Origin: Candidatus Scalindua sp.
GTDB taxonomy: Bacteria > Planctomycetota > Brocadiia > Brocadiales > Scalinduaceae
NCBI GenBank assembly: GCA_031316235.1
Contig: JALDRA010000001.1
Span: 1,140,001-1,172,000 of the forward strand
Direction: 5' to 3'
Length of the DNA: 32,000 nucleotides
Both the position numbers and the translations under genes were made by a program. Each line of letters begins with the position of its first letter. The stretch's first letter is position 1. The notes beneath the pieces are model-generated. The model did no database searches. It saw only the letters and a program-made list of their open reading frames with translations, and was not told the origin of the DNA. This document shows positions 2,406 to 31,090 of this stretch, one piece after another.

Positions 2406-2760
2406 TCAGTTTTGGTTGGCAGGCAATGCCTGCCCTACTCGACTGACAGGCTCAAGTTCCTCTGAAACAGGCAGATCGAGAACATGTCTGTACAGAAATA
2501 CAATGGCATCCAACACCTGCCGCTGAGTTGATGCCGAAACATTCCGTTCTGTTGCCAGACGGCTCAAAAATGCCTCGATCTCAGTTTTTCCCATTTCACG
2601 AGGATGCTTTTTTGCATTTGTGAAACTTGATATAATACTCAATTCAGTCACAATACGTTCGTTCAGTGTGATATGCGTAATGATGATATCGTAATACCTG
2701 GCGAACCTGGTCCATAAGTTTCAAACGAGAATCCAGTTTAAATTTCTTCTTGATTTCCAT
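2406..2760 (-). pseudogene. intI: Integron-integrase-like tyrosine recombinase, N-terminal ~118 codons only
   Basis: The minus-strand reading MEIKKKFKLDSRLKLMDQVRQVLRYHHYAYHTERTYCD*IEYYIKFH, after a frameshift, continues NAKKHPREMGKTEIEAFLSRLATERNVSASTQRQVLDAIVFLYRHVL. This parallels the IntI1 N-terminus ([37 protein letters not shown]...[31 protein letters not shown]). There is a TGA where Trp is expected, one frameshift, and no catalytic domain. Confidence 0.7.
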
Positions 2761-2851: not shown

Positions 2852-2902
2852 GTTGATAAATGCAATATGTACGAAATATTCCATTTATCAACGATGTTAG
2901 GC
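2852..2902 (+). other. attI-like junction: 11-bp inverted repeat plus GTTAGGC core
   Basis: GTTGATAAATG (2852-2862) and CATTTATCAAC (2882-2892) form a perfect inverted repeat, followed by GAT and then GTTAGGC (2896-2902). It lies between the divergent intI remnant and the first + strand ORF. Confidence 0.4.
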
Positions 2903-2977: not shown

Positions 2978-4156
2978 ATGACAAGTATATTTCTTAGCCA
3001 TAGTCATGCAGACAAACCTTTCGTAAGGAAGCTTGCGTCAGATTTGACTGAGAATGGGGTTAAAGTTTGGCTTGATGAGGCTGAAATGCTCATAGGAGAT
3101 TCGCTTATTGAAAAGATAAGTGCTGGACTTGAAGAAACCGCATTTGTCGGAGCCATATTATCAGAAAATTCTGTAACTTCGAGTTGGGTGAAAAGAGAGC
3201 TCGAAATAGCGATCAATGAAGAAATAGATGGAAAACAGAGAAAAGTTCTACCCATAGTAATTGAAAACTGTGACATTCCTAAATTTCTTGCAGGGAAGCT
3301 TTACGCCGATTTTAGAGACCCGGATACTTATAATCAAAAACTCAATATGGTTCTAAAAAGCCTAGGAATTAACGTTGATGTTTTGAGTGATAAACCATTT
3401 GAACCAGAAACAATACTAATTCCAAAAGGTAGTTTCCTTATGGGTAGTGATAGGAAAATTGATGACTACGCAGATGATGATGAACTACCCCTGCATGAGC
3501 TATACCTTGGATATTACTACTTGGGAAGAACGACGGTTACGAATAGTCAGTTTGCCGAATATGTACGTCAAACAAATAATATTCCGAAAAAGTGGAAGGA
3601 TTTTGGATATGACCCTGAGAAAGGGATTAAACAAAGCTTGCTTAATCACCCAGCGGTTTGGATTACTTGGTACGAGGCGCTCGATTATTGTGTTTGGCTA
3701 TCTGCTATGACCGGAAAAAAATACAAACTCCCGTCGGAAGCAGAGTGGGAGAAAGGTGCAAGAGGGACATCAGGTAGGATATACCCGTGGGGTGATAAGT
3801 ATTCTCCAGAACGCGCTAGAAACTGCGACAAAGGGGAAGTTGAAATCGACGAAATACATGTTGATGTAGAGTCTTATCACATAGGGGGCAGTCCTTATGG
3901 GTTGTTACATATGGCGGGTAATGTACAAGAATGGACTTCTAGCTTATGGGGTGCTAACCAAACAACGAGCTTTCCCTATCCATACAGTTCCTCTGATGGA
4001 AGGGAATATCAATTAGCGAATAGTGATATTGCTAGAGTAGTAAGAGGAGGTTCGTTCTTACATAATATGAAGGGCATAAGATGTGCGTACCGAAATGGTG
4101 TAAAACCAAATGACCCAGGTGCAGCCATAGGTTTTCGTATAGTGAAAGTCGTGTAA
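2978..4156 (+). CDS. TIR domain / FGE (SUMF1)-like domain fusion protein
   Basis: N-terminal TIR motifs: IFLSHSHADKPFV, VWLDEAEMLIGD, SSWVKRELEIA. C-terminal FGE-family motifs: HPAVWITWYEALDYCVWLS, LPSEAEWEKGARG, YPWGD, HMAGNVQEWT, RVVRGGSF, IGFRIV. Confidence 0.85.
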   Translation: MTSIFLSHSHADKPFVRKLASDLTENGVKVWLDEAEMLIGDSLIEKISAGLEETAFVGAILSENSVTSSWVKRELEIAINEEIDGKQRKVLPIVIENCDIPKFLAGKLYADFRDPDTYNQKLNMVLKSLGINVDVLSDKPFEPETILIPKGSFLMGSDRKIDDYADDDELPLHELYLGYYYLGRTTVTNSQFAEYVRQTNNIPKKWKDFGYDPEKGIKQSLLNHPAVWITWYEALDYCVWLSAMTGKKYKLPSEAEWEKGARGTSGRIYPWGDKYSPERARNCDKGEVEIDEIHVDVESYHIGGSPYGLLHMAGNVQEWTSSLWGANQTTSFPYPYSSSDGREYQLANSDIARVVRGGSFLHNMKGIRCAYRNGVKPNDPGAAIGFRIVKVV

Positions 4157-4164
4157 ATTTAAAT

Positions 4165-4517
4165 GTCTAACGCCAGCAATTAACTCGGACAAATCTCCGC
4201 GGTGCTTGTTTTGTGCTAAAAAAGAAAAGAAAAAGGGGTCAAAAAAGAAAAGGGGTCAGATCTTTCCATGACTGCATATCTGCTTTAAGACTGTATATTG
4301 CTTTTTTATATTTGTACTATTATTCATACTCTCTTTCAACCGAAAATTGCTTGAAGCTATAGTTTTGTAAGAGTTGGTTTTATATCTTTTTGCGATCTCT
4401 GGAAAACTCAGTCCTGATATACTAAAACCGATTTGGTTTTCGGTTTTACCGGAAACTCATTCAAAGCGGATTCGTAGGGCAGTTGACGGCTGTCAACACT
4501 GTTGAGAATCGTTAGAT
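4165..4517 (+). repeat. attC-like site, expanded or disrupted
   Basis: The 5' box GTCTAAC (4165-4171) lies 8 nt after the stop codon. The 3' box GTTAGAT (4511-4517) is near-complementary to it. The ~350-bp interval contains a MITE-1 fragment, a Rep4-like piece and GGGGTCA motifs. Confidence 0.4.
4418..4456 (-). mobile_element. MITE-1 fragment (one terminus only)
   Basis: TATACTAAAACCGATTTGGTTTTCGGTTTTACCGGAAAC matches the termini of full copies at 28065 and 30979, after which homology stops. Confidence 0.5.
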
Positions 4518-4566
4518 TTAATATTGTTTTCCGAACATAACACATATACAGTAAGGACAGTAAAAC

Positions 4567-4800
4567 ATGAAAACTTATGAATTTACCCTAATTATTTCGG
4601 AAGTAGACGATAAAAAAGCTGAGGCAATCTATAGTAAGTGTGCCGATTCAAGCTTAGGCAAACGTAACAGTACGACTTATGTTGCTTTCGATAGAGAAGC
4701 AGAGAGCCTGGAATATGCAATTGACTCAGCTATAACTGACCTAAAAAGTGTCGGTGTGCAGCCACTACACATCGAGATTGAAATTCCAGCTACGGTATAA
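4567..4800 (+). CDS. Hypothetical 77-aa protein (cassette ORFan)
   Basis: ORF track. It starts 50 nt after GTTAGAT. No family confidently recognised. Confidence 0.5.
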   Translation: MKTYEFTLIISEVDDKKAEAIYSKCADSSLGKRNSTTYVAFDREAESLEYAIDSAITDLKSVGVQPLHIEIEIPATV

Positions 4801-4828
4801 TCATTTATTTTCGTGACCTAAGCAGTGT

Positions 4829-4924
4829 AGGTGGGGGTCAAATCTTGATTTGTGATTAGTGTTGCATGTCTGTATTTATTGTTGACAAACATCGACAAAG
4901 CTAATAGAAACAGTGACTATTAAA
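4829..4924 (+). repeat. Rep3 copy a, carrying a sigma70-like promoter
   Basis: GGGGTCAAATCTTGATTTGTGATTAGTG...TATTTATTGTTGACAAACATCGACAAAGCTAATAGAAACAGTGA. TTGACA (4882-4887), a 17-nt spacer, then TAGAAA (4905-4910). Homologous to 18577, 23458 and partly 7712. Confidence 0.6.
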
Positions 4925-4925
4925 G

Positions 4926-5052
4926 ACCTAACCAGTCACTGGAGGTGACGCCTTTATCTCTTGCGATTTTTGAGTTTTTGGATTCTTTGCTTATTTTGTT
5001 TTTTTCCATTATTATATACGCCATACGGCGTACCTCACCTCAAACGTTATAC
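4926..5052 (+). repeat. attC-like site (singleton, 127 bp)
   Basis: 5' box ACCTAAC (4926-4932) and 3' box GTTATAC (5046-5052). The arm CAGTCACTGGAGGTGACGCC pairs with GGCGTACCTCACCTCAAAC. Confidence 0.6.
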
Positions 5053-5274
5053 GCTCAACGATAAAAGCATTATCAAGATTTAAAGTCATATTGAAGATTT
5101 TCTTTAAGGAACCTATATTTACTGTAAAATGAAAATATAAACAATTGTGTTTATACCGCTATATTGGAGTTATAAGAACAGTTTTTCCCATACACACGTT
5201 ACCGGTAAGCCGCTGAAATAACGCGTGAAACAAACAAATAAAAATTAAAACTATTAACAAACTGGGGGGCAACA

Positions 5275-7647
5275 ATGAAAAAAATCACCTACACCTTAAT
5301 TGCATTGGTATTACTATCAAGTGCGAGCTTCGCTTCATCAAATCAAAAAACAGATACGGCTATTGTTACCAATAGTATCGACAGAACAATTCTTCCAATA
5401 AAAGAACCGACTCCACCAACCTTCACTGAATTGGATGTGCGCAATGCAAAGTTGCCCCCCCGATTTGAGGTCAAAGCTCCTGAAGGAGCACCCAATGTGC
5501 TATTGGTTTTAATTGATGATCTTGGCTTTGCGGGTACGAGCACCTTCGGTGGTCCGGTTCCTACACCTGCTTTTGATAAGGTCGCAAATGAAGGACTTTA
5601 TTTTAATAATTTTCATACCACTGCTGTGTGCTCGCCCACCAGAACGGCATTAAAAAGTGGCCGCAACCACCATGTTGGCAACATGGGAAGCATTATTGAA
5701 ACCGGCACTGGTTTCCCTGGAAATACAGGCAAGATTCCACAAAATGTTACACCAGTTGCGGAAATGCTACGATTAAATGGTTACTCGACTGCCGCATTTG
5801 GTAAATGGCATGAGTTAGCAGCATGGGAGGCAAACGTTTCCGGGCCTTTTGACCGTTGGCCTACGCGTCAAGGATTTGATAAGTTTTATGGATTCCTCGG
5901 TGGGGAAACCAATCAATGGGCTCCATTTATATACGATGGTGTTCATCCTGTTGAGTTACCGGATGATCCAAATTATCACTTCATGGAAGATATGACAGAT
6001 CAAGCGACAGCATGGATAAAATATCAAAAAGCCTTAACGCCCGACAAACCATTTTTTTTGTATTTTGCTCCTGGTGCTACTCACGCTCCGCATCATGTAC
6101 CACAAAGTTATATTAACAAGTGGAAAGGAAAATTTGATGGGGGTTGGGATGCCATGCGTGAACAGATTTTGGCTCGTCAAATTGAAATAGGCATTACACC
6201 AAAAGGAACCAAATTGGCTCCAAAACCTGAAGCAATACAAGAGTGGGAAAGTCTTTCAGCAGATGAAAAACGACTTTATGCGAAACAAGCCGAAGTTTTT
6301 GCCGCATTTCTTGAAATGACGGATTATGAAGTTGGACGCCTGATTGATGCAATTGACGAGATTGGTCAAGCAGAGAATACAATGGTTATTTTTGTTTATG
6401 GCGATAATGGTACCAGTGCGGAAGGTGGAACAAGCGGTATGTACAGCGAAATGACCTACTTTAATGGGGTACAAGAAACCGTTCCGGATATGCTAAAGAA
6501 AATTGATGAGTGGGGTGGTCCGAACACGTACCCTCATATGGCTGCCGGTTGGGCCGTAATGTTTGATACACCATACAAATGGACTAAGCAAATGGGATCA
6601 GACCATGGTGGAACTAAAGTGGGTATGGCTATTCGCTGGCCAAAAGGAATTAAGGCAAAAGGAGAATTGCGTACACAATTTACACATGTAATTGATGTAG
6701 CTCCGACCATTTTAGAAGCAATTGGATTACCAGAGCCAACAGAAGTTAATGGAGTAGCGCAACGACCAATGGATGGAACAAGCATGTTGTACACTTTCAA
6801 TGAAGCAAATGCTAAAGAAAGACATACTACTCAATATTTTGAAATGTTTGGTAACCGGGCTATGTATCATGATGGCTGGTATGCAAGAACCATTCATAGA
6901 GCTCCATGGGAAAAAACGCCAAGAAGACCTCTTACTGAGGATATTTGGGAACTTTACGAAGTGGCCAATGATTTTAGTTTAATAAATGATCTTTCAGCTG
7001 AACATCCTGAAAAATTAAAAGAGCTACAAGACCTATTTATGAAAGTAGCGGAAGAAAATCACGTGTTGCCCATTGACGACCGTGTGTTCGAACGCATCAT
7101 TGCAGCAAATGTAGGACGTCCTGATATTATGGCGGGCCGTAGTTCATTAACATTAGCTGAAGGCATGACGGGTATGACCGAAAACACTTTCCTGAATATA
7201 AAAAATAAATCAGTAGTTATTACTGCTGAAATTAAGGTTAAAGAAGGCGCCTCTTCGAATGGAATTATTATTGCTCAAGGTGGTCGTTTTGGCGGTTGGG
7301 CATTGTATGTAAAAGATGGCGTTCCTGCTTACGACTATAATTTCTTAGGAATTGAACGTTATACGGTAAAAGCTTCAGAAAAGTTAAAACCCGGTAAATA
7401 CACCATCAAATTTGATTTTGCTTACGATGGTGGTGGTATTGGTAAAGGCGGAATGGGTACCTTCTATATAAATGGCACTAAATCGGGTGAAGGCCGGATA
7501 GAACGCACACAACCCGCAATATTCTCTGCCGATGAAACTGCCGATGTTGGCATCGATCTATCTACACCGGTAGTAGAAACTATTGGCGCAGAACATAAAT
7601 CAAAATTTAACGGACATATACCAAAAGTGGTTGTTGAAGTGAAATAA
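5275..7647 (+). CDS. Exported Cys-type arylsulfatase (~790 aa, AtsA-like)
   Basis: Signal peptide MKKITYTLIALVLLSSASFA. Sulfatase signature TAVCSPTRTALKSGR (CxPxR), plus LIDDLGF and GKWH motifs. Confidence 0.9.
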   Translation: MKKITYTLIALVLLSSASFASSNQKTDTAIVTNSIDRTILPIKEPTPPTFTELDVRNAKLPPRFEVKAPEGAPNVLLVLIDDLGFAGTSTFGGPVPTPAFDKVANEGLYFNNFHTTAVCSPTRTALKSGRNHHVGNMGSIIETGTGFPGNTGKIPQNVTPVAEMLRLNGYSTAAFGKWHELAAWEANVSGPFDRWPTRQGFDKFYGFLGGETNQWAPFIYDGVHPVELPDDPNYHFMEDMTDQATAWIKYQKALTPDKPFFLYFAPGATHAPHHVPQSYINKWKGKFDGGWDAMREQILARQIEIGITPKGTKLAPKPEAIQEWESLSADEKRLYAKQAEVFAAFLEMTDYEVGRLIDAIDEIGQAENTMVIFVYGDNGTSAEGGTSGMYSEMTYFNGVQETVPDMLKKIDEWGGPNTYPHMAAGWAVMFDTPYKWTKQMGSDHGGTKVGMAIRWPKGIKAKGELRTQFTHVIDVAPTILEAIGLPEPTEVNGVAQRPMDGTSMLYTFNEANAKERHTTQYFEMFGNRAMYHDGWYARTIHRAPWEKTPRRPLTEDIWELYEVANDFSLINDLSAEHPEKLKELQDLFMKVAEENHVLPIDDRVFERIIAANVGRPDIMAGRSSLTLAEGMTGMTENTFLNIKNKSVVITAEIKVKEGASSNGIIIAQGGRFGGWALYVKDGVPAYDYNFLGIERYTVKASEKLKPGKYTIKFDFAYDGGGIGKGGMGTFYINGTKSGEGRIERTQPAIFSADETADVGIDLSTPVVETIGAEHKSKFNGHIPKVVVEVK

Positions 7648-7714
7648 ATTGACAACTAAAAACTTATTTGGAGTTCAAGCAATAGCTGTGGATTGGCATG
7701 CACTTGGATTGGGG

Positions 7715-7785: not shown

Positions 7786-8436
7786 TTATTCTACCAGTGT
7801 TTTTGCCAAATGGGCAGACTTCAAGCCTCCATGGCGATTCGGAAACAGCAAGAGAGGATTTTACGTACTATGAATAAGCCAAAAGCGGCGTAAGAGATCT
7901 AGCGTTGTCTTTGGCAGTGGTACCAAACGGTCTTTATTACCCTTCTTGCTATCGCGGATATGCACCCTCATTCGCTGACCATTGACATCGCCAACCTCAA
8001 GGCATAGTCCTTCACCCAGGCGGAGACCAAGACTGTAAAGCACAAAGTAAAGAACCCGGTAACTGAGCCTTTTGGTCGCCTGAAATAGTTGGCGAGCTTC
8101 ACTAACGGTGATAATATCGGGCAAGCGTTGCATCTTGGGTGGTTTAATAAGATTAACTTCCACCCAACGTTTATGAAGCACATGAGTGTAGAAAAACTTG
8201 AGACCGTAGAGGTCTAATTTGACCGTGCTCCATGAATGGGTATCGAGGAGATTGAAAAAGTAATCGAGCAGTTGCTGTTCAGACAGATCGTGTATCTGAT
8301 GATCAAAATAGTCACCGATCCGTCAGATGGCACGTGAATAAGCCTCGATTGTTTTTGGCTGGAGACCTTTCAAGCGAAGGTGTTTTAGGTGCGTTTGGTA
8401 ATTTTTGTTGAAATTGGACTCAGATAATGTTTTCAT
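7786..8436 (-). pseudogene. Tyrosine recombinase remnant of the type that accompanies IS91-family elements
   Basis: AGGAGG RBS and ATG at 8436. The reading is MKTLSESNFNKNYQTHLKHLRLKGLQPKTIEAYSRAI*RIGDYFD...HSWSTVKLDLYGLKFFYTHVL...LGLRLGEGLCLEVGDV...KGNKDRLVPLP...FWLIHST*NPLLLFPNRHGG. It has two in-frame stops and lacks the HxxR and Tyr portion. Confidence 0.65.
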
Positions 8437-8541
8437 AGACCGGTAACCTCCTATTTGTTAATAGATTCACCCTTCCGTTGAGGGTGTGAGGTTACATTAT
8501 ATAATAAATTTCGGAATTCTGTTCTCCGCGATAGCGGCTTC

Positions 8542-8668
8542 GTCCAACAAATCAGTGGAGCCAACTCCTCCGTCATTTGCGATTCGATTATTCACAGGCT
8601 CTTTGTTTATCTTATTTATTTCTATTATTTTGTTTGCCAAACGGGGTAGATCACTTCAGACGTCAGGC
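8542..8668 (+). repeat. attC-like site, family 2 copy a (127 bp)
   Basis: 5' box GTCCAAC (8542-8548) and 3' box GTCAGGC (8662-8668, GTT degraded to GTC). Same family as 9866 and 18777. Confidence 0.55.
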
Positions 8669-8671
8669 AAA

Positions 8672-8810
8672 TATACTCATCTCATAATGGTTTTCGGATA
8701 AAATCCGGGATAAAATTGAGCGAGTAAAGTCCTCGGCGCTTTTTGTCCGGGGATACCTTCACCAAGATTTGGTTTCCGGTAAAACCGAAAACCAAATCGG
8801 TTTTAGTATA
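8672..8810 (+). mobile_element. MITE-1, long form (139 bp)
   Basis: TATACTCATCTCATAATGGTTTTCGGATAAAATCC...ACCAAATCGGTTTTAGTATA with imperfect TIRs and two internal hairpins. It carries a 27-nt insert relative to the 112-bp form. Confidence 0.7.
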
Positions 8811-8919
8811 TCTATGGACTGGAAGACATTCATGGCAAACACAATAGAAAGCCTGGCGTGTCCCATATTTTCCATTTGACTCCAAATTTCCGACTAATTC
8901 CCGAATTTTCTTATTGGAT

Positions 8920-9840
8920 ATGAAAAGAGTTCGAGTAAACTTGATAGTTATTGTATTTTTCACATGTTGCCTCAATGAATTAGAAAGTGCGGGGCATGGT
9001 CATAGCCATGGTATACACACATCCGCGAGTACTATTCGACTGCGAACAACTGAAAACTTTGATGTAGTTAATTTTTTCAAACCCATACATCCTAAAATTC
9101 CTGATTCTCTTGGTTTTGATATATACATGGCCCCTTTGATCATTCAGGAAATACCACCTGGTGGAGCAGGAGATATGACTGACCGGTTTGGTTTTGTTAC
9201 TGCGGATTCTTCTGGATGCCTTCATATTGATTCGGCGCGCCCTGTTGTTTATTATTCTCAGTCTTACGTTGATTTGGGTGGAAGCGTATATCAACAGATT
9301 TCTTACCTTTGGTGTTATGATAGGGGCAAAACAGAATGCTTTGGGAATAATATGGGAATTGCAGTTCAAGGTATTCGTATGACGATGGGTAGCGCCGGAT
9401 TCCCAGAGATAATTGAGGTCCTTGATGATACGAGCAATCACCGTATCCTTTATGTCTCCAGAACTCTAGAAGATACTGCAGTGGATTTATTTGGCAAACC
9501 CTTGCCGGGCACAAAATATTCCATTGAACGTAATCAAGAGGACTTACCTGATATTGTTGTTGCCCGGGCTGTAGAAAAAGGACCAGCACCTTCCGGGCCG
9601 TTTGTATATATTCAATCCTGTAGTCACGATATCACTACTTTACTTTGTCGTTGCGAAAATACCCAATTTGGGGATTTAGAAGGAGATATACTCTACGAGC
9701 TTTTACCGATCGAGGAACTCAAGAATGTTGGAATTAATGATACGATTTGGTCAAGGGAAATCCTAAACAACAAGTATCCACGGTCGAAGGAGGAAAAGGA
9801 CTTACTGTTGAGGGTTTTGCGGCTACCACCGGAGTTTTGA
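8920..9840 (+). CDS. Hypothetical exported protein (306 aa)
   Basis: ATG at 8920 is in frame with ORF 8914..9840. It has a hydrophobic N-terminus (LIVIVFFTCCL) followed by HGHSHGIH. No family recognised. Confidence 0.55.
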   Translation: MKRVRVNLIVIVFFTCCLNELESAGHGHSHGIHTSASTIRLRTTENFDVVNFFKPIHPKIPDSLGFDIYMAPLIIQEIPPGGAGDMTDRFGFVTADSSGCLHIDSARPVVYYSQSYVDLGGSVYQQISYLWCYDRGKTECFGNNMGIAVQGIRMTMGSAGFPEIIEVLDDTSNHRILYVSRTLEDTAVDLFGKPLPGTKYSIERNQEDLPDIVVARAVEKGPAPSGPFVYIQSCSHDITTLLCRCENTQFGDLEGDILYELLPIEELKNVGINDTIWSREILNNKYPRSKEEKDLLLRVLRLPPEF

Positions 9841-9865
9841 TCTAGTACAACAGCAACCATTAAAA

Positions 9866-10128
9866 TCCTAACAAATCTGTGGAGTCAACCCCTCCGTCAT
9901 TTGTGATTCGATTATTTTCAGGTTCATTGTTTATCTTATTTTTATCTATACTCATCTCATACTGGATTTCGGATAAAATCCGGGATAAAATTGAGCGAGT
10001 AAAGTCCTCGGCGCTTTTTGTCCGGGGATACCTTCACCAGGATCTGGTTTCCGGTAAAACCGGAAACCAAATCGGTATTAGTATATTATTTTATTTACCA
10101 AACGTGTTTGCTTACCTCAACGTTACAG
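9866..10128 (+). repeat. attC-like site, family 2 copy b, split by a MITE
   Basis: 5' box TCCTAAC (9866-9872) and 3' box GTTACAG (10122-10128). It is collinear with 8542-8668 once 9947-10085 is removed. Confidence 0.55.
9947..10085 (+). mobile_element. MITE-1, long form, inserted in an attC with a TA duplication
   Basis: The occupied site reads TATC-TA-[TACTCATC...TTAGTA]-TA-TTATTTT. The empty-site equivalent in copy 8542 reads TTTC-TA-TTATTTT. Confidence 0.75.
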
Positions 10129-10179
10129 GAAAACACATTAACAAAATTTGTAATTTCAGCACTTCATAAGGAGCAAAAA

Positions 10180-10758
10180 ATGTCAAAGAGTATAAAAGGA
10201 TCCCAAACCGAGAAAAATTTACTCACAGCCTTCGCTGGAGAATCTCAGGCGAGAAATAGATATACCTTTTTTGCAAGTAAAGCTAAAAAAGAAGGTTTAG
10301 TCCAAATTTCAGATATATTTGAAGAAACTGCAAACCAGGAAAAGGAACATGCCAAACGATTCTTTAAATTTCTTGAAGGTGGTGAGGCGGAAGTTTCAGC
10401 GTCTTTTCCCGCAGGTACAATTGGAAGCACAGTAGAAAACCTTAAAGCAGCAGCGGCTGGTGAAGAATATGAATGGACAGAAATGTATCCAGGATTTGCC
10501 AGGATCGCAAAAGAAGAAGGATTTGAAGAAATAGCAAAAGCATTTGAGGCTATATCTGTGGCAGAGAAGCAACATGATAAACGGTATAAGGATCTTGCCG
10601 ATAACCTTGAGGCGGGTAGAGCATTTAAAAGAAATAACAAAGTAACATGGCGCTGCAGAAACTGTGGTTATTTGCACGAAGCTGATGAAGCGCCAGAATT
10701 ATGCCCGGCTTGCCTTCATCCACAGTCTTATTTTGAATTATTAGGTGAAAACTGGTAA
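10180..10758 (+). CDS. rbr: Rubrerythrin
   Basis: AAGGAG RBS. MSKSIKGSQTEKNLLTAFAGESQARNRYTFFA, ExxH di-iron motifs, and a C-terminal rubredoxin-like CRNCG...CPAC. Confidence 0.9.
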   Translation: MSKSIKGSQTEKNLLTAFAGESQARNRYTFFASKAKKEGLVQISDIFEETANQEKEHAKRFFKFLEGGEAEVSASFPAGTIGSTVENLKAAAAGEEYEWTEMYPGFARIAKEEGFEEIAKAFEAISVAEKQHDKRYKDLADNLEAGRAFKRNNKVTWRCRNCGYLHEADEAPELCPACLHPQSYFELLGENW

Positions 10759-10824
10759 AGAAAGTGCAAATGACCATTGATTGTATAACAAAAGCAGTCT
10801 CTTACCTGATCGGGCAAGAACTTT

Positions 10825-10881
10825 GCACAACGGATTCGATGCAGCAACATGCAAGGCCGACAATGGTTGAGGACGTTGAGC
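10825..10881 (+). repeat. Short (57 bp) attC-like site
   Basis: GCACAAC (10825-10831) and GTTGAGC (10875-10881, fits GTTRRRY). The flanking arms GCACAACGGATTC and GAGGACGTTGAGC are 9/13 complementary. Confidence 0.35.
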
Positions 10882-10905
10882 GAAACCTGAACGAGGTACT
10901 GAAAT

Positions 10906-12129
10906 ATGGAGATAACTGACGGGGTATTGCGAATTGGACCCGGCTTAGCGGCAACGTTCGGCATTATCGTACTGTTCGTGGGCAAGCGGGTGAATGAAAA
11001 GATCACATTCCTGCAGGAGTTCAGCATCCCGAAGCCGGTTACCGGTGGGCTGTTTTTCTCGATACTGTTCGCCACCGTGTACGCGGCGACGGGCGTGGCG
11101 GTCGAGTTTGATCTCGCGGCCCGGGACTTCCTCCTGGTGTATTTCTTTACGGCCATCGGCATTAACTCCAGCGTCAAAGACCTGCTGACCGGGGGAAAAC
11201 CGCTCGTCGTCCTTCTGGTAATTACCATTTTGTACATGGTCCTCCAGAACCTGACCGGCCTGTCCGTAGCGGCACTCTTCGACTTGCCCGCCGCGGTTGG
11301 CCTTCTGGGCGGTACGGTCTCGCTGATCGGAGGCCACGGTACCGCAATCGCCTGGGCCCCGCGGATCGCGGAAGACTACGGCGTATCCAATGCCATGGAA
11401 GTCGGTATCGCCTGTGCGACCTTCGGCTTGATTCTGGCGAGCCTCATGGGTGGCCCGATCGCCAAGTTCCTGATCACCCGTCACGCTCTCACGCCCGACA
11501 AGGCTGACACCTTGGACGTGGGGGTATCTGAGGAAAAAGGTGATGGTGCGATCGGTTCCATGAACTTTCTAGACGCCATCCTCGCCATCCATCTGAGCGT
11601 GCTTTCCGGGCTGCTGCTTAACGATGGATTGAAAAGGCTGGGGCTCGAGCTGCCCTTGTTCGTCACATGTCTGTTTGCCGGACTCCTCCTTACCAACCTC
11701 ATCCCTGCCAATTTCCCGCGTTTCAGCGGAATGCGCTGGCCCAGTCGCACACCGTCCATGGCCCTGATCGCCGACGTCGCACTGGGGACCTTCCTGGCCA
11801 TGTCACTCATGAGCATGCAGCTATGGGCATTGATCGATCTGGCCGGGCCCATCTTCACCCTTCTCGCGGCTCAATTCGCAATCGCGGTGGCCATCAACAT
11901 ATTTGTTGTCTTCCCCCTCATGGGCCGCACGTATGACGCCGCTGTGGTGTGCGCCGGTTTTGGCGGTATCTCCCTGGGCTCGACACCCACGGCCATGGCC
12001 AATATGTCTGCGGTGACGCAGCGGTACGGCGCCTCCCACCTTGCCTTCGTCATCGTGCCCCTGGTGTGCGCATTTTTCATCGACCTGGTCAACGCATTGC
12101 TGATCCCCTTCTTCCTCGCCAAATTCTAG
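10906..12129 (+). CDS. gltS: Sodium/glutamate symporter
   Basis: Collinear resemblance to E. coli GltS (IPEPVAGGL to IPKPVTGGL, GGHGT, ACATFGL). GC-rich island. Confidence 0.85.
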   Translation: MEITDGVLRIGPGLAATFGIIVLFVGKRVNEKITFLQEFSIPKPVTGGLFFSILFATVYAATGVAVEFDLAARDFLLVYFFTAIGINSSVKDLLTGGKPLVVLLVITILYMVLQNLTGLSVAALFDLPAAVGLLGGTVSLIGGHGTAIAWAPRIAEDYGVSNAMEVGIACATFGLILASLMGGPIAKFLITRHALTPDKADTLDVGVSEEKGDGAIGSMNFLDAILAIHLSVLSGLLLNDGLKRLGLELPLFVTCLFAGLLLTNLIPANFPRFSGMRWPSRTPSMALIADVALGTFLAMSLMSMQLWALIDLAGPIFTLLAAQFAIAVAINIFVVFPLMGRTYDAAVVCAGFGGISLGSTPTAMANMSAVTQRYGASHLAFVIVPLVCAFFIDLVNALLIPFFLAKF

Positions 12130-12533: not shown

Positions 12534-12667
12534 CACAACTGAATTTTATCAGTAATTGAGCTTGTTTACAGGAAGATGCATCAAAATTGCAGACACCTTT
12601 CTGGTCTTTAGAACGGTATTGTAATTTTTTACAGCTCAACTATCGATAAAATCCTTACCGTTATGAA
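12534..12667 (+). repeat. attC-like site (singleton, 134 bp)
   Basis: GCACAAC (12534-12540) and GTTATGA (12661-12667). The arms TGAATTTTATC/GATAAAATCC and AGTAATTGAGC/GCTCAACTATC pair. Confidence 0.5.
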
Positions 12668-12685
12668 AGAAATTATAATAACGCT

Positions 12686-12714
12686 TGACATTATTAACGA
12701 GATGCAATACTATC
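12686..12714 (+). promoter_or_regulatory. Sigma70-like promoter of higBA
   Basis: TTGACA (12686-12691), a 17-nt spacer, then TACTAT (12709-12714). The ATG lies 7 nt after the -10 box and there is no SD. Confidence 0.5.
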
Positions 12715-12720
12715 TAATAA

Positions 12721-13002
12721 ATGATAAAAAACTTTGCTTGCAAAGAAACAGAGGAAATATACAATCGTCGAATATCACTCAAACTTCCGCGGGATATACA
12801 AAAAACTGCCCGGAGAAAACTTGAAATACTTGAAGGTGCTGAAGCCCTGATGGATTTACGTATACCACCGGATAATCATCTTGAAAAACTATCGAAGGAC
12901 AGGAAGAGGCAATATAGTATCCGTATTAATGATCAATGGCGTATATGTTTTGAATGGCGTGGAGGAGATGTTTACAACGCTGAAACAGTAGATTATCATT
13001 AA
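12721..13002 (+). CDS. higB: HigB-type toxin (RelE/ParE superfamily killer protein)
   Basis: [52 protein letters not shown]...VDYH matches the HigB signature. Confidence 0.85.
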
Positions 13003-13012
13003 GGAGGTAACG

Positions 13013-13318
13013 ATGACAAAAAAGCTATTAGATCCAATTCATCCGGGTAAAATTCTTATGGAAGAATTTCTCAAACCCATGGGTATTAGTCAGTACAGGC
13101 TGGCTAAAGATATTAATGTACCTGCACGTAGAATAAATGAGATTGTTCAGGGGAAACGTTCTATAACTCCGAATACAGCTTTAAGATTATCAAGATTTTT
13201 CGGTCTTTCAGAAAGGTTCTGGGTGAATCTTCAGGCTAGATACGATCTTGAAATAGAAAAAGATAGATTAAAGAATCGACTTGATGAAGAAGTGCATGTT
13301 TACACTTCTGCAATATAA
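13013..13318 (+). CDS. higA: HigA antitoxin (XRE-type HTH)
   Basis: IHPGKILMEEFLKPMGISQYRLAKDINVPARRINEIVQGKRSITPNTALRLSRFFG. AGGAGG RBS, starting 10 nt after higB. Confidence 0.85.
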   Translation: MTKKLLDPIHPGKILMEEFLKPMGISQYRLAKDINVPARRINEIVQGKRSITPNTALRLSRFFGLSERFWVNLQARYDLEIEKDRLKNRLDEEVHVYTSAI

Positions 13319-13339
13319 ACAGTTTTGCAGCGAACCTAT

Positions 13340-13464
13340 ACATAACAAGCGCATGAAGCCAACCACCAATAACTATGCGATTTAATATTTATTGAGGCTG
13401 CCGCTCCAAGCCTCTATTGCAGGCCTGCCGCACAGGTGGTGGTTGCTTAAGCAAAACGTTCGGC
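13340..13464 (+). repeat. attC-like site, family 1 copy B
   Basis: 5' box ACATAAC (13340-13346) and 3' box GTTCGGC (13458-13464). About 80% identical by eye to copy A. Confidence 0.65.
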
Positions 13465-18776: not shown

Positions 18777-18903
18777 TTCTAACAAATCAGTGGAGCTAAC
18801 CCCTCCGTCATTTGTGATTCGATCCTTTTCAGGCTCTTTGCTTACCTTATTTTTGTCCATTATTTCATTTGCCAAACTGGGTTGCTCACTTCAGACATTA
18901 TAA
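18777..18903 (+). repeat. attC-like site, family 2 copy c
   Basis: 5' box TTCTAAC (18777-18783). The 3' box position reads ATTATAA (18897-18903). Collinear with 8542-8668. Confidence 0.5.
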
Positions 18904-19022: not shown

Positions 19023-20880
19023 GCAAAATTTTTTTTACTCGTATTTCAAAATCAAGTAAAAAGCAAACAGAAAGAAATAGCACAGCACCAATAATGGAGG
19101 TAATTTGCAAATTTGGAAACACCTCTCCCATGGTCTTTTATTTTGCTTCCAGAAACATCAATTTAATTCTGTAACAAGAGGTGAAAAGCAATCATCGTCT
19201 TATCCAGGTATGCCTGAAATGAGAGATTCCCTCTCTTGCTTAAACGATCATCACCACTATCACACTTCAGCCGCTTTATCATCCGCTCAACTGAAGGGCG
19301 ACGTGTCATTATCGCCTTAAATCTCTTTGCCATCGGAGGGTCTTCTGTGTCTATGTGGGATAACAATCCAAATGATATATTAATCATCCTGCCGGTTAGC
19401 GAATTGGGGCAACACTCTACCTGATGCCGGCATGTTGAACACACCGATCCTCCATCTGTATCCGTTGGCGCATGATAAATGAATTTCTCTCGTTCATAAC
19501 GCATTCCTTTGTAATCCATCTCATGGCCCCCATTGCAAATTACGACACCATACGGCGTTATCTTCTCCATACCACGCGGCAACCCAACTGTTACTTCCCT
19601 CTGACGCCTTGGATTTAAAGATGCCTTTAATTCCAGCCCAAGTTTGTCCATAAACTTATCTTTCAAATCTTTGCTGTCACACGCACTATCATACAATGCT
19701 CTTTTAACCGATTCTTTAATTACCGGATAGGTATCAAATACTTCTTCTATATGCGGAAGAAATGTCTCTCCATCATGGGTCGGTCCATCCAACACCGCCC
19801 TTGCATCCAAAGGCACCCCTTGGCGGGGAAAACCGACAATGCTTGCTTTGTGGCCCCAATACATCTTTGTTATGGATTTCACGATTGTTCCCGCTCCTTC
19901 ATCTGCCAGTACCCAGTCATGTTCACACTTGTCTCTGTCTTGACAGCGACACTTCTTGGTTAACTTTGATTGCGACTTCCTCTGCTCCTTGCCGTCTTTG
20001 TCTTTATACTTTACTGTCTCAAACCCTGAATACGCATAATAGTGGGTTGTATCTCCGACTACTTCTTTCTCTATTTTAATCGCACCTGTCTCTATGTTTT
20101 CAGTCACCAGCATAATCTTCATCTTATCCCATAGCCCCCATTCACTCATGATCTGGTCAAACTGCTGCAGTTTACGCTCACTCGGGATATGCCTGCTGCA
20201 ATACTCATCCCTTTCTCCTTTCGGCGCAAATCCACATACTCGGACAAAACTCGGATTACTCTTTAATAACATGGACACCTTTTCCGGTTCGCACGGAAAT
20301 CCCATGAGCGCTGTACCCAAAAAACTCTTCAACAACGCAAAAAAACACTTTGGCCTCTTACCTCCCAATCGAAATGGTACTACCCCGGGAGATATCCTAA
20401 AGGGATTTACCATCTGGACTTTGGATTCAGCCTTTACTTCATAAAGTACTCTACTTTTTTTCTCCTTATCAACCTGCATGGTTACTCTATCAAATAAAAG
20501 CAGCTGCCTTCTATCTTCTTTGCTCTGAGACAATACAACGTTCTTTTGGAGTTTACTCTCTTGCCTCTTTCTCTCTTCTCGCTTATTAAATTCATAAAGC
20601 GCATCATAATACTCAGCACCAAAAACACGGTGTTTCTCCCAGGGAAAATAATATAAAACCCTAAACCACTCTGCATCTGGCGTATTAAGCAGTACCTTGT
20701 CGTCTTCGTGAACGGTGTGAATGAGAAGTGGTTTTTGGTTGCTTTCAATTTGTGATAATGGTAGCATTCTTGTGTGTCCTTTCTTGTATAGTAGTTTGTG
20801 TTGTTGTGTGACTTCTATTATACAAGTTGGGCACCGTATTTTGTAATTTTACTTTTGCATTTTGTAAATTATTTTGCAAA
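19023..20880 (-). mobile_element. Insertion sequence (ends not resolved)
   Basis: Carries a single DDE transposase ORF. AT-rich candidate inverted repeats are GCAAAAT... (19023) against ...ATTTTGC (20877), or TAATTTGCAAA (19101) against TTTGTAAATTA (20861). No clear TSD. Confidence 0.45.
19163..20767 (-). CDS. DDE transposase, IS4/IS5 superfamily-like
   Basis: C-terminal (Y)-x2-R-x3-E-x6-K-type motif MTRRPSVERMIKRLK. Cys-rich inserts CRCQDRDKCEH and CSTCRHQVECC. Confidence 0.7.
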   Translation of the reverse strand: MLPLSQIESNQKPLLIHTVHEDDKVLLNTPDAEWFRVLYYFPWEKHRVFGAEYYDALYEFNKREERKRQESKLQKNVVLSQSKEDRRQLLLFDRVTMQVDKEKKSRVLYEVKAESKVQMVNPFRISPGVVPFRLGGKRPKCFFALLKSFLGTALMGFPCEPEKVSMLLKSNPSFVRVCGFAPKGERDEYCSRHIPSERKLQQFDQIMSEWGLWDKMKIMLVTENIETGAIKIEKEVVGDTTHYYAYSGFETVKYKDKDGKEQRKSQSKLTKKCRCQDRDKCEHDWVLADEGAGTIVKSITKMYWGHKASIVGFPRQGVPLDARAVLDGPTHDGETFLPHIEEVFDTYPVIKESVKRALYDSACDSKDLKDKFMDKLGLELKASLNPRRQREVTVGLPRGMEKITPYGVVICNGGHEMDYKGMRYEREKFIYHAPTDTDGGSVCSTCRHQVECCPNSLTGRMINISFGLLSHIDTEDPPMAKRFKAIMTRRPSVERMIKRLKCDSGDDRLSKRGNLSFQAYLDKTMIAFHLLLQN

Positions 20881-21984: not shown

Positions 21985-22701
21985 ATGAATCAAATTAATA
22001 TTCAGTATTACAAGACCAAGATTGGAGAGCTAATATTAGGTTCTCTTGATGGGAAATTATGCTTGCTTGATTATAGGTATAGGAGAATGAGGGCAACAGT
22101 TGATAATCGAATCAAAAAAGGTCTAAGGGCCGACTTTGTAGAAAAAAATGCTGATGTATTGTCTAAAGCAAGAGTACAACTTGATGAGTATCTTAATGGA
22201 GGTAGAATAAATTTTGATATCCCAGTATTAGTGGCAGGGACTGATTTCCAGAAAAGTGTATGGAAAGCTTTAGTGAAAATTCCTTACGGTAAGACCGCTT
22301 CTTATTTAGATATAGCAAAGTTCATTAATAAAGAAAAGGCTGTGAGAGCTGTTGCAGGTGCAAATGGAGCAAATTCAATTAGCTTGATTATTCCCTGTCA
22401 TCGAATCATAGGAAGTAACGGAGAGCTTGTTGGTTATGGTGGCGGGGTACCAGTAAAAAAACGGTTATTGAAGCTTGAGCAAAACAACTCAGGTTTACGC
22501 GATAATGAGAAATATAATTTCATTGGAAGTAAAAACATAAAGTATGATGGTGTGTTCTTTACCGCTGTAAAAACAACAGGTATATACTGCAAGCCATCTT
22601 GTAGTGCAAAAAAGCCCAATAGAGAAAATGTCATATTTTATGATACAAAAAAAGATGCTACCGAAAATGGCTATAGGCCCTGTAAGGTTTGCAAGCCATA
22701 A
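21985..22701 (+). CDS. ogt: Methylated-DNA-protein-cysteine methyltransferase fused to a C-terminal Ada-type zinc domain
   Basis: Active site IPCHRIIGSNG. The C-terminus FFTAVKTTGIYCKPSCSAKKPNRENVIFYDTKKDATENGYRPCKVCKP parallels the E. coli Ada N-domain [29 protein letters not shown]...GFRPCKRCQP. Confidence 0.85.
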   Translation: MNQINIQYYKTKIGELILGSLDGKLCLLDYRYRRMRATVDNRIKKGLRADFVEKNADVLSKARVQLDEYLNGGRINFDIPVLVAGTDFQKSVWKALVKIPYGKTASYLDIAKFINKEKAVRAVAGANGANSISLIIPCHRIIGSNGELVGYGGGVPVKKRLLKLEQNNSGLRDNEKYNFIGSKNIKYDGVFFTAVKTTGIYCKPSCSAKKPNRENVIFYDTKKDATENGYRPCKVCKP

Positions 22702-22705
22702 AAAC

Positions 22706-22830
22706 TTATAACAAGCGCATGAAACCAACCACCAGATTATATGCAGTTTAATATTTATTGAAGCTAACGTTTCACTGTTCTTCTGCATGAATCATACACA
22801 GGTGATGGTTGCTTATGTGTGTCATTATGG
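22706..22830 (+). repeat. attC-like site, family 1 copy C
   Basis: 5' box TTATAAC (22706-22712). The 3' box position reads ATTATGG (22824-22830). Confidence 0.6.
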
Positions 22831-26580: not shown

Positions 26581-26585
26581 ATATG

Positions 26586-26608
26586 GCCTAACGCCGAAGA
26601 GTAGGAGG
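26586..26608 (+). repeat. attC 5' remnant
   Basis: GCCTAACGCC parallels GTCTAACGCC at 4165, and CGCCGAAGA is shared with 14491. No 3' half follows. Confidence 0.4.
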
Positions 26609-26720
26609 TATACTCATCTCATAATGGTTTTCGGATAAAATCCGAGATAAAATTGAGCGAGTATACCTTCACCAAGATTTGGTTTCCGGTAAAACCGAAA
26701 ACCAAATCGGTTTTAGTATA
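26609..26720 (+). mobile_element. MITE-1, short form (112 bp)
   Basis: A full copy lying between the attC remnant and the start-less TIR reading frame. Confidence 0.75.
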
Positions 26721-26779
26721 TTACCAGGGAAGGAAATTTTGATATAGCATTCTCTTTTGCTGGTGAACAGCGAGAATAT

Positions 26780-27652
26780 GTGGAAGCTACCTATACAAAA
26801 TTAAAACAACTCGGTATCTCCGTCTTCTACGACGCATCACAAGTTGCCGATCTTTTGGGTAAGAATTTATACGAATATTTGAGCGATGTTTACCAAAACC
26901 AAGCTAAATATTGTGTAGTTTTCTTATCAAAGGAGTACGCAAATAAGTTGTGGACTAAGCACGAACTAAAGAGTATGCAGGCTCGGGCTTTCCAAGAGTC
27001 AAGAGAGTATATATTACCTGCCCGTTTTGACGACACAGAAATTCCTGGTTTACTTCCTGCTATTGCTTATATAGATCTTAACGAATATGCCCCTGGTAAA
27101 TTTGCTGAATTAATTGCAGATAAAGTCAAAGATCGAGATATGGGACAGGAACCAATCATTAATCCAGAACTCGAAGTAAATTTAACAGATGTTGTCATAT
27201 GGGCTCAAGAATATTTAAGGCCCCAATCGTTAGATCTTTCAGATGCTGTTGCTGAGTCTGTTCGTACATCTTTTCGAGAAGCTGGAATCCAACCAGAACG
27301 CCAACATTTAATTCCATACATTCGGAATCCGAGAGCCGAATACCGTGTTGTTGGCTATTTTGCATTCCAAATTGATCCAATAAAGGAAATGGTTCTGGAC
27401 TTGATTAATGGTCTAAGCCACGAACGAGTGGAGGCAACCGAACGAAAAGAGACCAGGCCACTCTGGCAACTTTTAGTCTGCTTTACATATCTCATGCAGC
27501 ATCAGACCCCTCCTGCGGATCGCGACTTGATCAAGAAGGCTCTTAAAGATTTTATAGAGTTCATGCAGAATGATTCTGCTATAGATCCAGGTGGGGAATG
27601 CCGGGCACGTATTGAAATGATAACAGGGGAACGCTGGCTATTCACTGCATGA
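26780..27652 (+). CDS. TIR-domain protein with an unknown C-terminal domain; 5' end apparently lost
   Basis: The frame is open from 26717 (YITREGNFDIAFSFAGEQREYVEAT...), so the TIR betaA motif FDIAFSFAGE lies upstream of the first canonical start (GTG at 26780). Also YCVVFLSKEYANKLWTKHELKS and ILPARFDDTEIPG. Confidence 0.7.
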   Translation: MEATYTKLKQLGISVFYDASQVADLLGKNLYEYLSDVYQNQAKYCVVFLSKEYANKLWTKHELKSMQARAFQESREYILPARFDDTEIPGLLPAIAYIDLNEYAPGKFAELIADKVKDRDMGQEPIINPELEVNLTDVVIWAQEYLRPQSLDLSDAVAESVRTSFREAGIQPERQHLIPYIRNPRAEYRVVGYFAFQIDPIKEMVLDLINGLSHERVEATERKETRPLWQLLVCFTYLMQHQTPPADRDLIKKALKDFIEFMQNDSAIDPGGECRARIEMITGERWLFTA

Positions 27653-27663
27653 AATATGAAAGC

Positions 27664-27788
27664 GCATAACAATTGCACGAAACCAACCACCAGATTATAT
27701 GCAGTTTAATATTTATTGAAGCCACCGTTTCACTGTTCTCCTGCATGAATAGCGTACCGGTGGTGGTTACTTATGTGTAGCGCTAGGT
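27664..27788 (+). repeat. attC-like site, family 1 copy D
   Basis: 5' box GCATAAC (27664-27670). The 3' box position reads GCTAGGT (27782-27788). Confidence 0.6.
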
Positions 27789-27843
27789 GAAAAAGTAATA
27801 ATAACACTTGAAATTATTAACGAGATGCAATACTATCTAATGA

Positions 27844-28312: not shown

Positions 28313-28333
28313 ACAATTATGCAGTGATTCTGC

Positions 28334-28453
28334 ACATAACCGCATGAAGCCACCCACCAAGCTCATTCATGATTCACTTTTAGCGAGGCTACTTCTAAAC
28401 CTCCCTTGCATGAATCATACACAGGCGATGGTTGCTTATGCGAAACATTATTA
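28334..28453 (+). repeat. attC-like site, family 1 copy E
   Basis: 5' box ACATAAC (28334-28340). CGCATGAAGC pairs with GCTTATGCG. The 3' box position reads ATTATTA (28447-28453). Confidence 0.6.
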
Positions 28454-30926: not shown

Positions 30927-30978
30927 TATTCACCGCTTTCTTTTTTGTGCTTGAACGGAAATGCTCTGGTTCGGCTAC

Positions 30979-31090
30979 TATACTAAAACCGATTTGGTTT
31001 TCGGTTTTTCTGGAAACCAAATCTTGGTGAAGGCATACTCGCTCCATATTATCTCGGATTTTATCCGAAAACCAGTATGAGATAAGTATA
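30979..31090 (-). mobile_element. MITE-1, short form
   Basis: A full copy just upstream of dus, outside the cassette array. Confidence 0.75.

Follow-up and report, generated by a model that had tools for sequence, protein, structure and literature searches.

A TIR domain fused to a non-catalytic, hypervariable FGE-like domain beside a dead integron integrase in Candidatus Scalindua: a candidate anti-phage sensor-effector

The gene described here lies in a stretch of 32,000 nucleotides of Candidatus Scalindua sp. (contig JALDRA010000001.1, positions 1,140,001 to 1,172,000), referred to below as the window, and all window coordinates are counted from its first letter. It encodes a protein in which an N-terminal TIR domain is joined to a C-terminal domain of the formylglycine-generating enzyme (FGE/SUMF1) family, and it is a solitary, horizontally acquired gene that sits beside the dead integrase of a decayed integron array. 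Our analysis suggests that the FGE-like domain has given up catalysis and displays a variable ligand-binding patch, and that the fusion may be an anti-phage protein in which this patch serves as sensor and the TIR domain as effector. The parts of the gene on which the argument depends are the following.

2978..4156, plus strand: TIR-FGE fusion gene, ATG start, intact open reading frame (ORF), 392 aa
2978..3379, plus strand: N-terminal TIR domain, aa 1-134, from Pfam and PDB sequence matches
3197..3199, plus strand: codon of the putative catalytic Glu, E74, in the TIR motif WVKRE, from alignment to AbTIR and conservation among homologues
3395..4147, plus strand: C-terminal FGE/SUMF1-like domain (C-type-lectin fold), aa 140-390, with a conserved scaffold and no catalytic Cys pair
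4058..4129, plus strand: hypervariable patch, aa 361-384 (LHNMKGIRCAYRNGVKPNDPGAAI), defined by entropy, at the place of the active-site loop in FGE and of the variable region in targets of a diversity-generating retroelement (DGR)

NCBI records the 392-aa product, with 100% identity, from a Candidatus Scalindua metagenome-assembled genome (MAG) under the name 'SUMF1/EgtB/PvdO family nonheme iron enzyme [Candidatus Scalindua sp.]'. Pfam places TIR_2 at aa 4-122 (E=6.8e-30) and FGE-sulfatase PF03781 at aa 143-390 (E=5.4e-46, with positions 3-255 of the 255 in the profile covered), and the protein stays below the cut-off of every NCBIfam model. A structure predicted by AlphaFold2 from 58 homologues (mean pLDDT, the predicted local distance difference test score, 78.8) has alternating beta/alpha elements over aa 3-128. 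In a Foldseek search it matched ToxD, FGEs, PvdO, CalU17 and TvpA, the variable protein of a DGR, with E-values of 1e-16 to 1e-10 (about 1e-15 for the FGE structures and 9e-11 for TvpA, 2y3c), which are far beyond chance. A PDB sequence search gave a similar picture, with AbTIR, TcpB, PdTIR and Cat1 matching the TIR part and ToxD (E=1.6e-24), bacterial and human FGEs, PvdO, PorK/GldK, CalU17 and TvpA matching the FGE part. Both folds, which an earlier note on this DNA had read from the letters alone, are therefore confirmed by profile searches and by the structural comparison. Since the protein has no signal peptide and starts directly in the first beta strand of the TIR domain, it is cytoplasmic.

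The TIR domain carries the motif WVKRELEIA (nt 3185-3211). Against AbTIR, an NADase of solved structure (8g83, 7uwg), its E74 aligns with the Glu in 'WTNYEL'. In an alignment of 58 homologues, from which the per-column entropies given below were also taken, E74 is invariant (58/58) and W70 is kept in 50, in agreement with the conserved TIR Glu named in the earlier note. The nearest solved relatives are NADases of the AbTIR, TcpB and PdTIR type, with similarity over about 90 residues at E=1e-13 to 5e-9, and the match to TLR1 is far weaker (E=7e-4). An alternate explanation is that the TIR domain is a non-catalytic adaptor that serves TIR-TIR assembly with neighbouring proteins, as in animal TLR signalling, while the FGE domain simply captures a component of the invader and neutralises it. 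A 'neutralising' binding role of FGS domains is proposed by Kaur et al. 2020 (PMC7159879), who also describe adaptor-type homotypic domains in the same systems, and further TIR genes adjoin the fusion at 8 of the 10 homologue loci described below. However, a pure adaptor would not need such conservation of W70 and of the Glu used for NAD+ cleavage, the best sequence matches are catalytic bacterial TIRs with TLR1 far behind, and around the window copy no other TIR gene is found for 22 kb. We regard the adaptor explanation as distinctly improbable.

The FGE-like domain is a different case, as here the residues expected of the enzyme are gone. In the HMMER alignment of the segment RVVRGGSFLHNMKGIRCAYR (nt 4034-4093) to the T. 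curvata FGE (FLCHESYCNRYR), both catalytic Cys (FLCHESYC) stand opposite gaps in the query (SFL-HN--MKGIRCAYR). A Cys is found between GGS and RCA in only 2 of the 58 homologues and the pair is found in none, which upholds the view, put forward in the earlier note, that the Cys pair is missing and the domain non-catalytic. Because the pair is missing, the TIR-FGE protein is not a sulfatase-maturing enzyme. Two other cysteines, C238 and C369, are conserved in the homologues, and we take them to be the counterpart of the structural cysteine pair of human FGE.

The question of an enzymatic role nevertheless arises from a gene further along the same strand.

5275-7647, plus strand: Cys-type sulfatase, 790 aa, with a CSPTR motif and an N-terminal signal-like peptide (Pfam Sulfatase, E=2e-58)

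This sulfatase lies 1.1 kb downstream of the fusion gene, two ORFs on, and its presence would fit the idea that the FGE-like domain matures it or is an oxidoreductase like PvdO, ToxD or CalU17, with the TIR domain as a regulatory add-on. The top structural matches, ToxD, PvdO and CalU17, come from biosynthetic pathways and are also without the Cys pair, and genes for ATP-sulfurylase and Phosphodiest proteins lie near the fusion at two homologue loci, L008 and L092. On the other hand, both Cu-binding Cys are missing, and the expected place of an active site is less conserved than any other part of the protein and is randomised by a DGR in a relative (see below). An unrelated 77-aa ORF and an attC-like element (4927-5045) set the sulfatase apart from the fusion gene, and none of the 10 homologue loci has a sulfatase next to TIR-FGE. 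The missing Cys pair, the intervening ORF and attC-like element and the lack of a sulfatase beside homologues make a role in maturation very unlikely, and sulfatase maturation by the TIR-FGE protein was rejected on the grounds of the Cys pair and of a linkage that is not conserved. Taken as a whole, with the oxidoreductase version included, an enzymatic FGE domain seems to us extremely unlikely. The sulfatase itself depends on a source of formylglycine, which the TIR-FGE protein cannot be, and it appears to be an independent cassette. As to the sulfur genes, the ATP-sulfurylase (PUA_2) and type I phosphodiesterase (Phosphodiest) genes (L008 10178-13362, L092 10323-13051) lie within 1-3 kb of TIR-FGE, and in L008 an APS kinase gene is also nearby. 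Their proximity may reflect either synteny that related genomes have in common or a genuine connection with sulfur or nucleotide metabolism.

The part of the protein that varies most among homologues is the stretch that corresponds to the lost active site. In 20-residue windows over the alignment, the FGE scaffold has entropies of 0.3-1.4 bits and aa 361-384, between GGSF, RCA and GFR, reach about 2.4-2.5, which makes this patch the most variable part of the whole protein, although it includes the conserved scaffold residues R368, C369, R372 and P377. An enzyme active site would show the opposite pattern of conservation.

The link between this patch and DGRs was put to a direct test. For this test the 3' end of each FGE-domain ORF was searched for copies within its own fetched locus and the mismatches were tabulated. 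The loci came from a scan of genome contigs that mostly returned FGE-only relatives, because its patterns had been derived from the FGE domain; it is useful for the DGR test and is unsuitable for counting TIR-FGE genes. Template repeats with all or nearly all mismatches at template adenines were found at L015, L027, L030, L036, L037, L055, L080, L086 and L053. L037, from a Methylococcaceae MAG, holds a complete DGR with three targets, namely an nSTAND1-FGE protein, a 384-aa TIR_2-FGE protein (28% identical to the window protein) and a third FGE protein. The retroelement consists of the following parts (coordinates of that locus).

4218-4571: bAvd
4568-5632: reverse transcriptase
5632-5755: template repeat

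In this element all 16 mismatches between template repeat and variable region lie at template adenines (16/16), and the template peptide reads ...GGSWNNKPNNLRSANRNRNNPNQRNNNLGFR... where the variable-region peptide reads ...GGSWFILPYYLRSANRSRYLPLQRSIYLGFR... The 12 residues changed in the L037 variable region correspond to positions 361, 362, 363, 365, 366, 373, 375, 376, 378, 381, 382 and 383 of the window protein. These positions have a mean entropy of 3.43 bits in the family, as against 1.04 bits for the rest of the FGE domain (Mann-Whitney p=6e-9), they rank 1-22 of the 251 FGE positions by entropy, and they contain no alignment gaps. Their composition is also unusual, in that K, Q, E, M and W make up 6.8% of residues there and 20.3% elsewhere (Fisher p=2e-22), and N, D, S and Y make up 48.5% there and 19.1% elsewhere; this is the outcome that adenine mutagenesis of AAC-type codons would be expected to give. 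As the patch is randomised by a DGR in a relative and is the least conserved part of the family, aa 361-384 are best seen as a binding surface and not as a catalytic centre. The proposal in the earlier note that the FGE-like domain is a variable ligand-binding module is thus supported, both by the variability of the DGR-equivalent residues and by a relative of the same architecture that is a true DGR target. One of the other loci, L015, has a 1052-aa TIR_2-NACHT-FGE protein (7789-10947, minus strand; template repeat 7521-7654) as its DGR target, with 12/12 mismatches at template adenines, and this protein contains TIR and FGE modules of the same kinds with an NTPase inserted between them.

The window copy itself is probably fixed and is not being actively diversified, judging from its letters and surroundings. 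No template-like repeat of the 3' end of the gene was found within the 32-kb window, and no RVT_1 or bAvd match was obtained among the window ORFs scanned. The codons of its invariant scaffold residues are adenine-rich (AGA GTA GTA AGA GGA) and would be mutated by an active DGR, which argues that this copy is not diversified. In addition, its patch lacks the NNC codon signature of relatives, with a third-position C frequency of 0.22 vs 0.50-0.83, and encodes K, K and M. It is the combination of no template or reverse transcriptase in the window, adenine-rich scaffold codons and no NNC signature that leads us to this conclusion.

The fusion is not peculiar to Scalindua. The homologue search returned 2845 relatives, and in the best 120 clusters, in which architecture was counted, 108 have TIR together with FGE, at 36-72% identity. 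These clusters span Planctomycetota, Acidobacteriota, Chloroflexota, Gammaproteobacteria and Cyanobacteria. The closest relatives are full-length copies at 71-72% identity, and because one of them, at 72%, comes from Pyrinomonadaceae (Acidobacteriota), a different phylum from that of Scalindua, horizontal transfer is indicated. P0005-P0008 are examples of very close FGE domains that bear other N-termini. Across 80 reference-genome loci in which domain order was surveyed, FGE is always C-terminal and stands behind interchangeable N-terminal modules such as TIR, NACHT and nSTAND1. The neighbourhoods of the fusion were examined at 10 homologue loci and are summarised as follows.

L001: TIR_2 gene 3 kb upstream of TIR-FGE
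L003: Pentapeptide-TIR_2 gene directly upstream, with PLD and MmeI nearby
L005: two TIR-FGE genes and a TIR_2 gene
L006: no notable neighbours
L007: TIR_2 gene directly upstream
L008: LSDAT_prok, 8xMP, TIR_2 and two TIR-FGE genes
L089: XhoI restriction-modification genes, two TIR-FGE genes, EAD7 and PIN
L090: TIR_2, a CAP12-type TIR, Pentapeptide, 8xMP and two TIR-FGE genes
L091: Pentapeptide, four tandem TIR-FGE genes and then a 654-aa LSDAT(SLOG)-SLATT_1 protein
L092: no notable neighbours

Defence-type neighbours also include a SIR2-TIR gene at L037. Pentapeptide-repeat proteins stand beside TIR-FGE in 3 of the 10 loci (L003 6618-7850, L090 2033-3049, L091 992-2305), one of them fused to TIR_2, and may be another sensor or decoy module of TIR-FGE systems.

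With further TIR genes at 8 of the 10 loci and SLOG, SLATT or 8xMP genes at 3 of the 10, these neighbourhoods indicate that the family may often work in multi-gene sets like those of Thoeris. It is accordingly possible, if rather doubtful for the window gene, that the fusion is a ThsB-type sensor whose TIR domain makes a signal of the cyclic ADP-ribose (cADPR) type or another ADP-ribose (ADPR)-derived signal, that a separate effector encoded elsewhere in the genome kills the cell, and that the cassette alone is inert. This explanation is supported by L091, where the four tandem TIR-FGE genes directly precede a membrane protein of the LSDAT(SLOG)-SLATT_1 type, and by L008 and L090, in the latter of which an 8xMP gene accompanies several TIR genes; the 8xMP and LSDAT-SLATT proteins beside relatives carry transmembrane-like segments. 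Divergent TIR genes together with one SLOG effector are the published layout of Thoeris type III, and TIR with SLATT is that of type VII (bioRxiv 10.64898/2025.12.03.692087). The TIR part of the window protein is matched in PADLOC by PDC-S66, bSEFIR and ThsB1 (ThsB1 at E=2.7e-12), and its closest solved relative is AbTIR, whose product is a cADPR isomer. Against this stand the Pfam ThsB_TIR score, which is below the cut-off (17.0 vs 21.2 bits), and the expectation that a mobile single-gene cassette works by itself; the match to the NCBIfam model for Thoeris type III ThcB4 is weak (E=0.005). In addition, no SLOG, Macro, SLATT, 8xMP or SIR2 gene was found among the ORFs of the 32-kb window by the Pfam and PADLOC scans used for the effector and partner searches, and 7 of the 10 homologue loci are likewise without one of the SLOG, SLATT or 8xMP genes. 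In view of the neighbours just described, the single-gene status proposed in the earlier note may be an overstatement.

The 77-aa ORF downstream of the fusion (4567-4800, plus strand) was considered as a partner and rejected, as it has only a weak PADLOC match to PDC-M06B (8.4e-6) and no Pfam or NCBIfam match, and is not conserved beside homologues. The sole other TIR gene of the window is about 22 kb from the fusion and is followed by an attC-like element of the family called D1 below; it may be another TIR sensor cassette.

26780-27652, plus strand: second TIR_2 protein, 290 aa, with an N-terminal TIR and an unassigned C-terminus of about 170 aa (PADLOC PDC-S66 4e-12, ThsB1 1e-8)

On its upstream side the fusion gene is adjoined by the remains of an integron, of which the following features were identified.

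2406..2760, minus strand: integron integrase (intI) remnant, reduced to the N-terminal ~100 aa and bearing an in-frame stop (TYCD*I, W expected) and a frameshift, divergent from TIR-FGE
2896..2902, plus strand: GTTAGGC (GTTRRRY core), likely the attI-type recombination point, 136 nt from the start of intI (2760) and 75 nt upstream of the ATG (2978)
900-1028, 13332-13460, 22698-22826, 27656-27784 and 28338-28449: attC-like family D1, ending ...CGTTAGGC
4927-5045, 8543-8661, 9867-9985 and 18778-18896: attC-like family D2
4165..4517, plus strand: ambiguous 3' cassette boundary, where GTCTAAC (4165-4171) can pair with GTTAGAT (4511-4517), 346 nt apart, with dispersed repeats inside

The remnant has the integron integrase model TIGR02249 as its best NCBIfam match (positions 1-86 of 315, E=7e-27), and XerD follows at E=0.006. 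The attC-like elements are imperfect palindromes of about 120 nt that a repeat search located just after stop codons; they form at least two families, and the ending ...CGTTAGGC of D1 also ends the attI-type site. One D1 copy and a cassette with DUF2254 are located beyond the intI remnant, and an inverted repeat (2314-2439) overlaps the end of the remnant. As attC-like sites and cassettes occur on both sides of a dead intI, the array must have been rearranged, and this integrase can no longer shuffle it. The 3' boundary of the fusion cassette is less clear, since 4157-4530 folded as a long attC is no better than shuffled sequence (z=-0.81), and a strict attC pattern-and-fold scan (RYYYAAC...GTTRRRY with paired ends) gave one weak site only. 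A scan for promoters and terminators around the gene found no excess over shuffles. The suggestion in the earlier note that the gene occupies the attI-proximal, best-expressed position thus holds only in part, given the dead integrase, the attC-like sites on both sides, the ambiguous 3' attC and promoter matches not above chance. The label attI-proximal is reasonable, whereas nothing computed here supports the best-expressed position.

Several observations concern the array as a whole. The window contains further dispersed repeats (4417-4455, 28064-28102 and 30978-31016; 8672-8811, 9947-10086 and 26582-26721), and the GC content of its 1-kb pieces lies between 33% and 60%. Together with the palindromes, these fit a large sedentary cassette array that extends to both sides of the dead intI. 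A second tyrosine-recombinase pseudogene (7861-8400, minus strand) has an in-frame stop and ends after about 190 aa, and as IntI, XerA and XerD models score similarly on it, its identity as an integron integrase is doubtful.

In such surroundings the fusion gene could itself be a decaying relic, an intact-looking but non-functional remnant in a degenerating cassette array. The pseudogenised intI and second tyrosine recombinase speak for this, as does a patch without the NNC codon signature of relatives. However, the ORF of 392 codons is intact, all residues that are invariant in the family are kept, including E74 and those of the scaffold, and the protein is 71-72% identical to full-length copies in other phyla. 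We therefore regard decay of this gene as highly improbable.

From the folds, key residues, variability, gene contexts and DGR targeting of a relative, we infer a mechanism that involves ligand-induced oligomerisation, NADase activity and an anti-phage role. The FGE/C-type-lectin domain would be a rigid, non-enzymatic scaffold that displays the patch at aa 361-384, and this patch would bind a molecule from the invader, for which a phage protein is the most likely candidate. In other TIR enzymes the active site forms only on TIR assembly, and by analogy ligand binding could cluster the protein and bring its TIR domains together. The assembled TIR would then act as an NAD+-cleaving enzyme of the AbTIR/ThsB type and the infected cell would be stopped (abortive infection). 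Some relatives probably pass the ADPR-derived products of TIR chemistry as signals to SLOG/SLATT membrane effectors; for the window gene, direct NAD+ depletion by the protein alone is favoured because there is no partner effector at the locus.

Several considerations weigh against this proposal. A conserved Glu, as read from an alignment, is not proof of catalysis. The occurrence of homologues beside TIR genes and sometimes beside SLOG, SLATT or 8xMP genes argues for a family whose members often pass a signal to a separate effector instead of killing on their own. The decaying array with its pseudogenes means that the gene could be a relic, and its patch has lost the DGR-like codon signature. 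PADLOC, one of the defence databases to which the earlier note had pointed, recognises the TIR part and has no system model that spans the TIR-FGE fusion, and no experiment on any TIR-FGE member was found in the literature searched. With these points taken into account, we consider the reading as a whole, an anti-phage sensor-effector composed of a sensor and a catalytic TIR, to be on balance probable. The standalone version, in which the protein acts by itself through NAD+ depletion, accounts for part of this and is put forward only tentatively.

In its most pointed form the standalone version would make the two-domain TIR-FGE protein a minimal 'antibody-plus-enzyme' receptor encoded by a single gene, in which binding of a phage protein switches on the fused TIR NADase without an NTPase or a separate effector. 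It is possible, and again we say so with reserve, that the patch of such receptors is DGR-diversified in some lineages and fixed in others, and that the gene is compact enough to travel between phyla as an integron cassette. If true, no simpler case than TIR-FGE would be known of an immune NADase linked to a programmable, hypervariable binding surface, and the proposed role of DGR-diversified C-type-lectin domains as 'antigen sensors' would become directly testable with one small gene. A very widespread family would also join the anti-phage repertoire, and the cases of defence genes kept in chromosomal integron arrays would grow by one. For the window locus alone the gain is modest, as it is a member of an annotated family in a decayed array.

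Some other genes of the window may be recorded briefly. A HigB-like toxin and HTH antitoxin pair (12721-13318, within 12667-13346) has a second copy at 27790-28340 with 86-89% nucleotide identity in which the full ORFs are gone, and it looks like a duplicated toxin-antitoxin cassette of which one copy is decaying. A 534-aa ORF with a weak DDE transposase match (19163-20767, minus strand) breaks a run of same-strand genes, and the GC skew is reversed over 19-21 kb.

The concept of an FGE-like sensor behind a signalling module is already in the comparative-genomics literature, and the window gene adds one member to a large family that has been annotated before. FGS/FGE domains have been predicted to be C-terminal sensing or neutralising modules in conflict systems, with their partners always on the N-terminal side (PMC7159879). 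TIR domains have been described in the same conflict systems as FGS domains, among N-terminal TIR, NACHT, nSTAND and caspase modules (PMC7159879; PMC10907252). DGR-diversified C-type-lectin (CLec) targets carry TIR and peptidase domains (Dore et al. 2024, PMC10907252, and its preprint), and FGE-like sensors occur in STAND receptors (PMC13581612). A large survey of TIR signalling and Thoeris (bioRxiv 10.64898/2025.12.03.692087) does not mention 'FGE', 'sulfatase' or 'lectin'. We found no defence-database model in PADLOC for TIR-FGE and no papers under that name in the literature searched. What is new here is the quantitative match between the variable positions of the family and the DGR variable region in a relative of the same architecture, and the Thoeris-like contexts of some TIR-FGE relatives.

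Among known systems, the bacterial TIR NADases AbTIR, TcpB and PdTIR share the aligned W-x-x-x-E motif with the window protein, but they are without an FGE domain and have coiled-coil or other N-terminal regions. TcpB is moreover a host-directed virulence factor, whereas Scalindua is a free-living anammox bacterium without a host. The FGEs proper (SUMF1 and bacterial FGE) share the fold over the full length of the domain as well as the motifs RGGS, RCAxR and GFR; the window protein differs from them in that the two Cu(I)-binding catalytic Cys are absent, the loop that would carry them is shortened and hypervariable, and the domain is fused to a TIR. With the ThsB sensors of Thoeris (types I-VIII; Yirmiya et al. 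2025 preprint) it has in common a bacterial TIR with the catalytic Glu and the ThsB1 match in PADLOC, and some of its relatives resemble them further in their multi-copy arrays of divergent paralogues and in their association with SLOG and SLATT. Here, in contrast, no effector is present at the window locus, the sensor is a separate large FGE/CLec domain and the Pfam ThsB_TIR model stays below its cut-off.

Integron cassettes are known to encode phage defence (bioRxiv 10.1101/2024.07.02.601719), and as in those cases a small candidate defence gene is found here beside intI and attI with a cassette array following it. The difference is that here the integrase is dead, the array rearranged and the 3' attC ambiguous, and that the defence role of the window gene is a prediction. 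A further parallel is with the DGR-diversified FGE/'FGS' conflict proteins (PMC7159879; PMC10907252), which likewise join an N-terminal effector or signalling module to a C-terminal FGE/CLec domain, have a non-catalytic FGE fold and vary at the same positions. The window copy departs from them in having no template repeat, reverse transcriptase or Avd within 32 kb, and it represents a minimal two-domain form of this architecture, with no NTPase between the TIR and the sensor.

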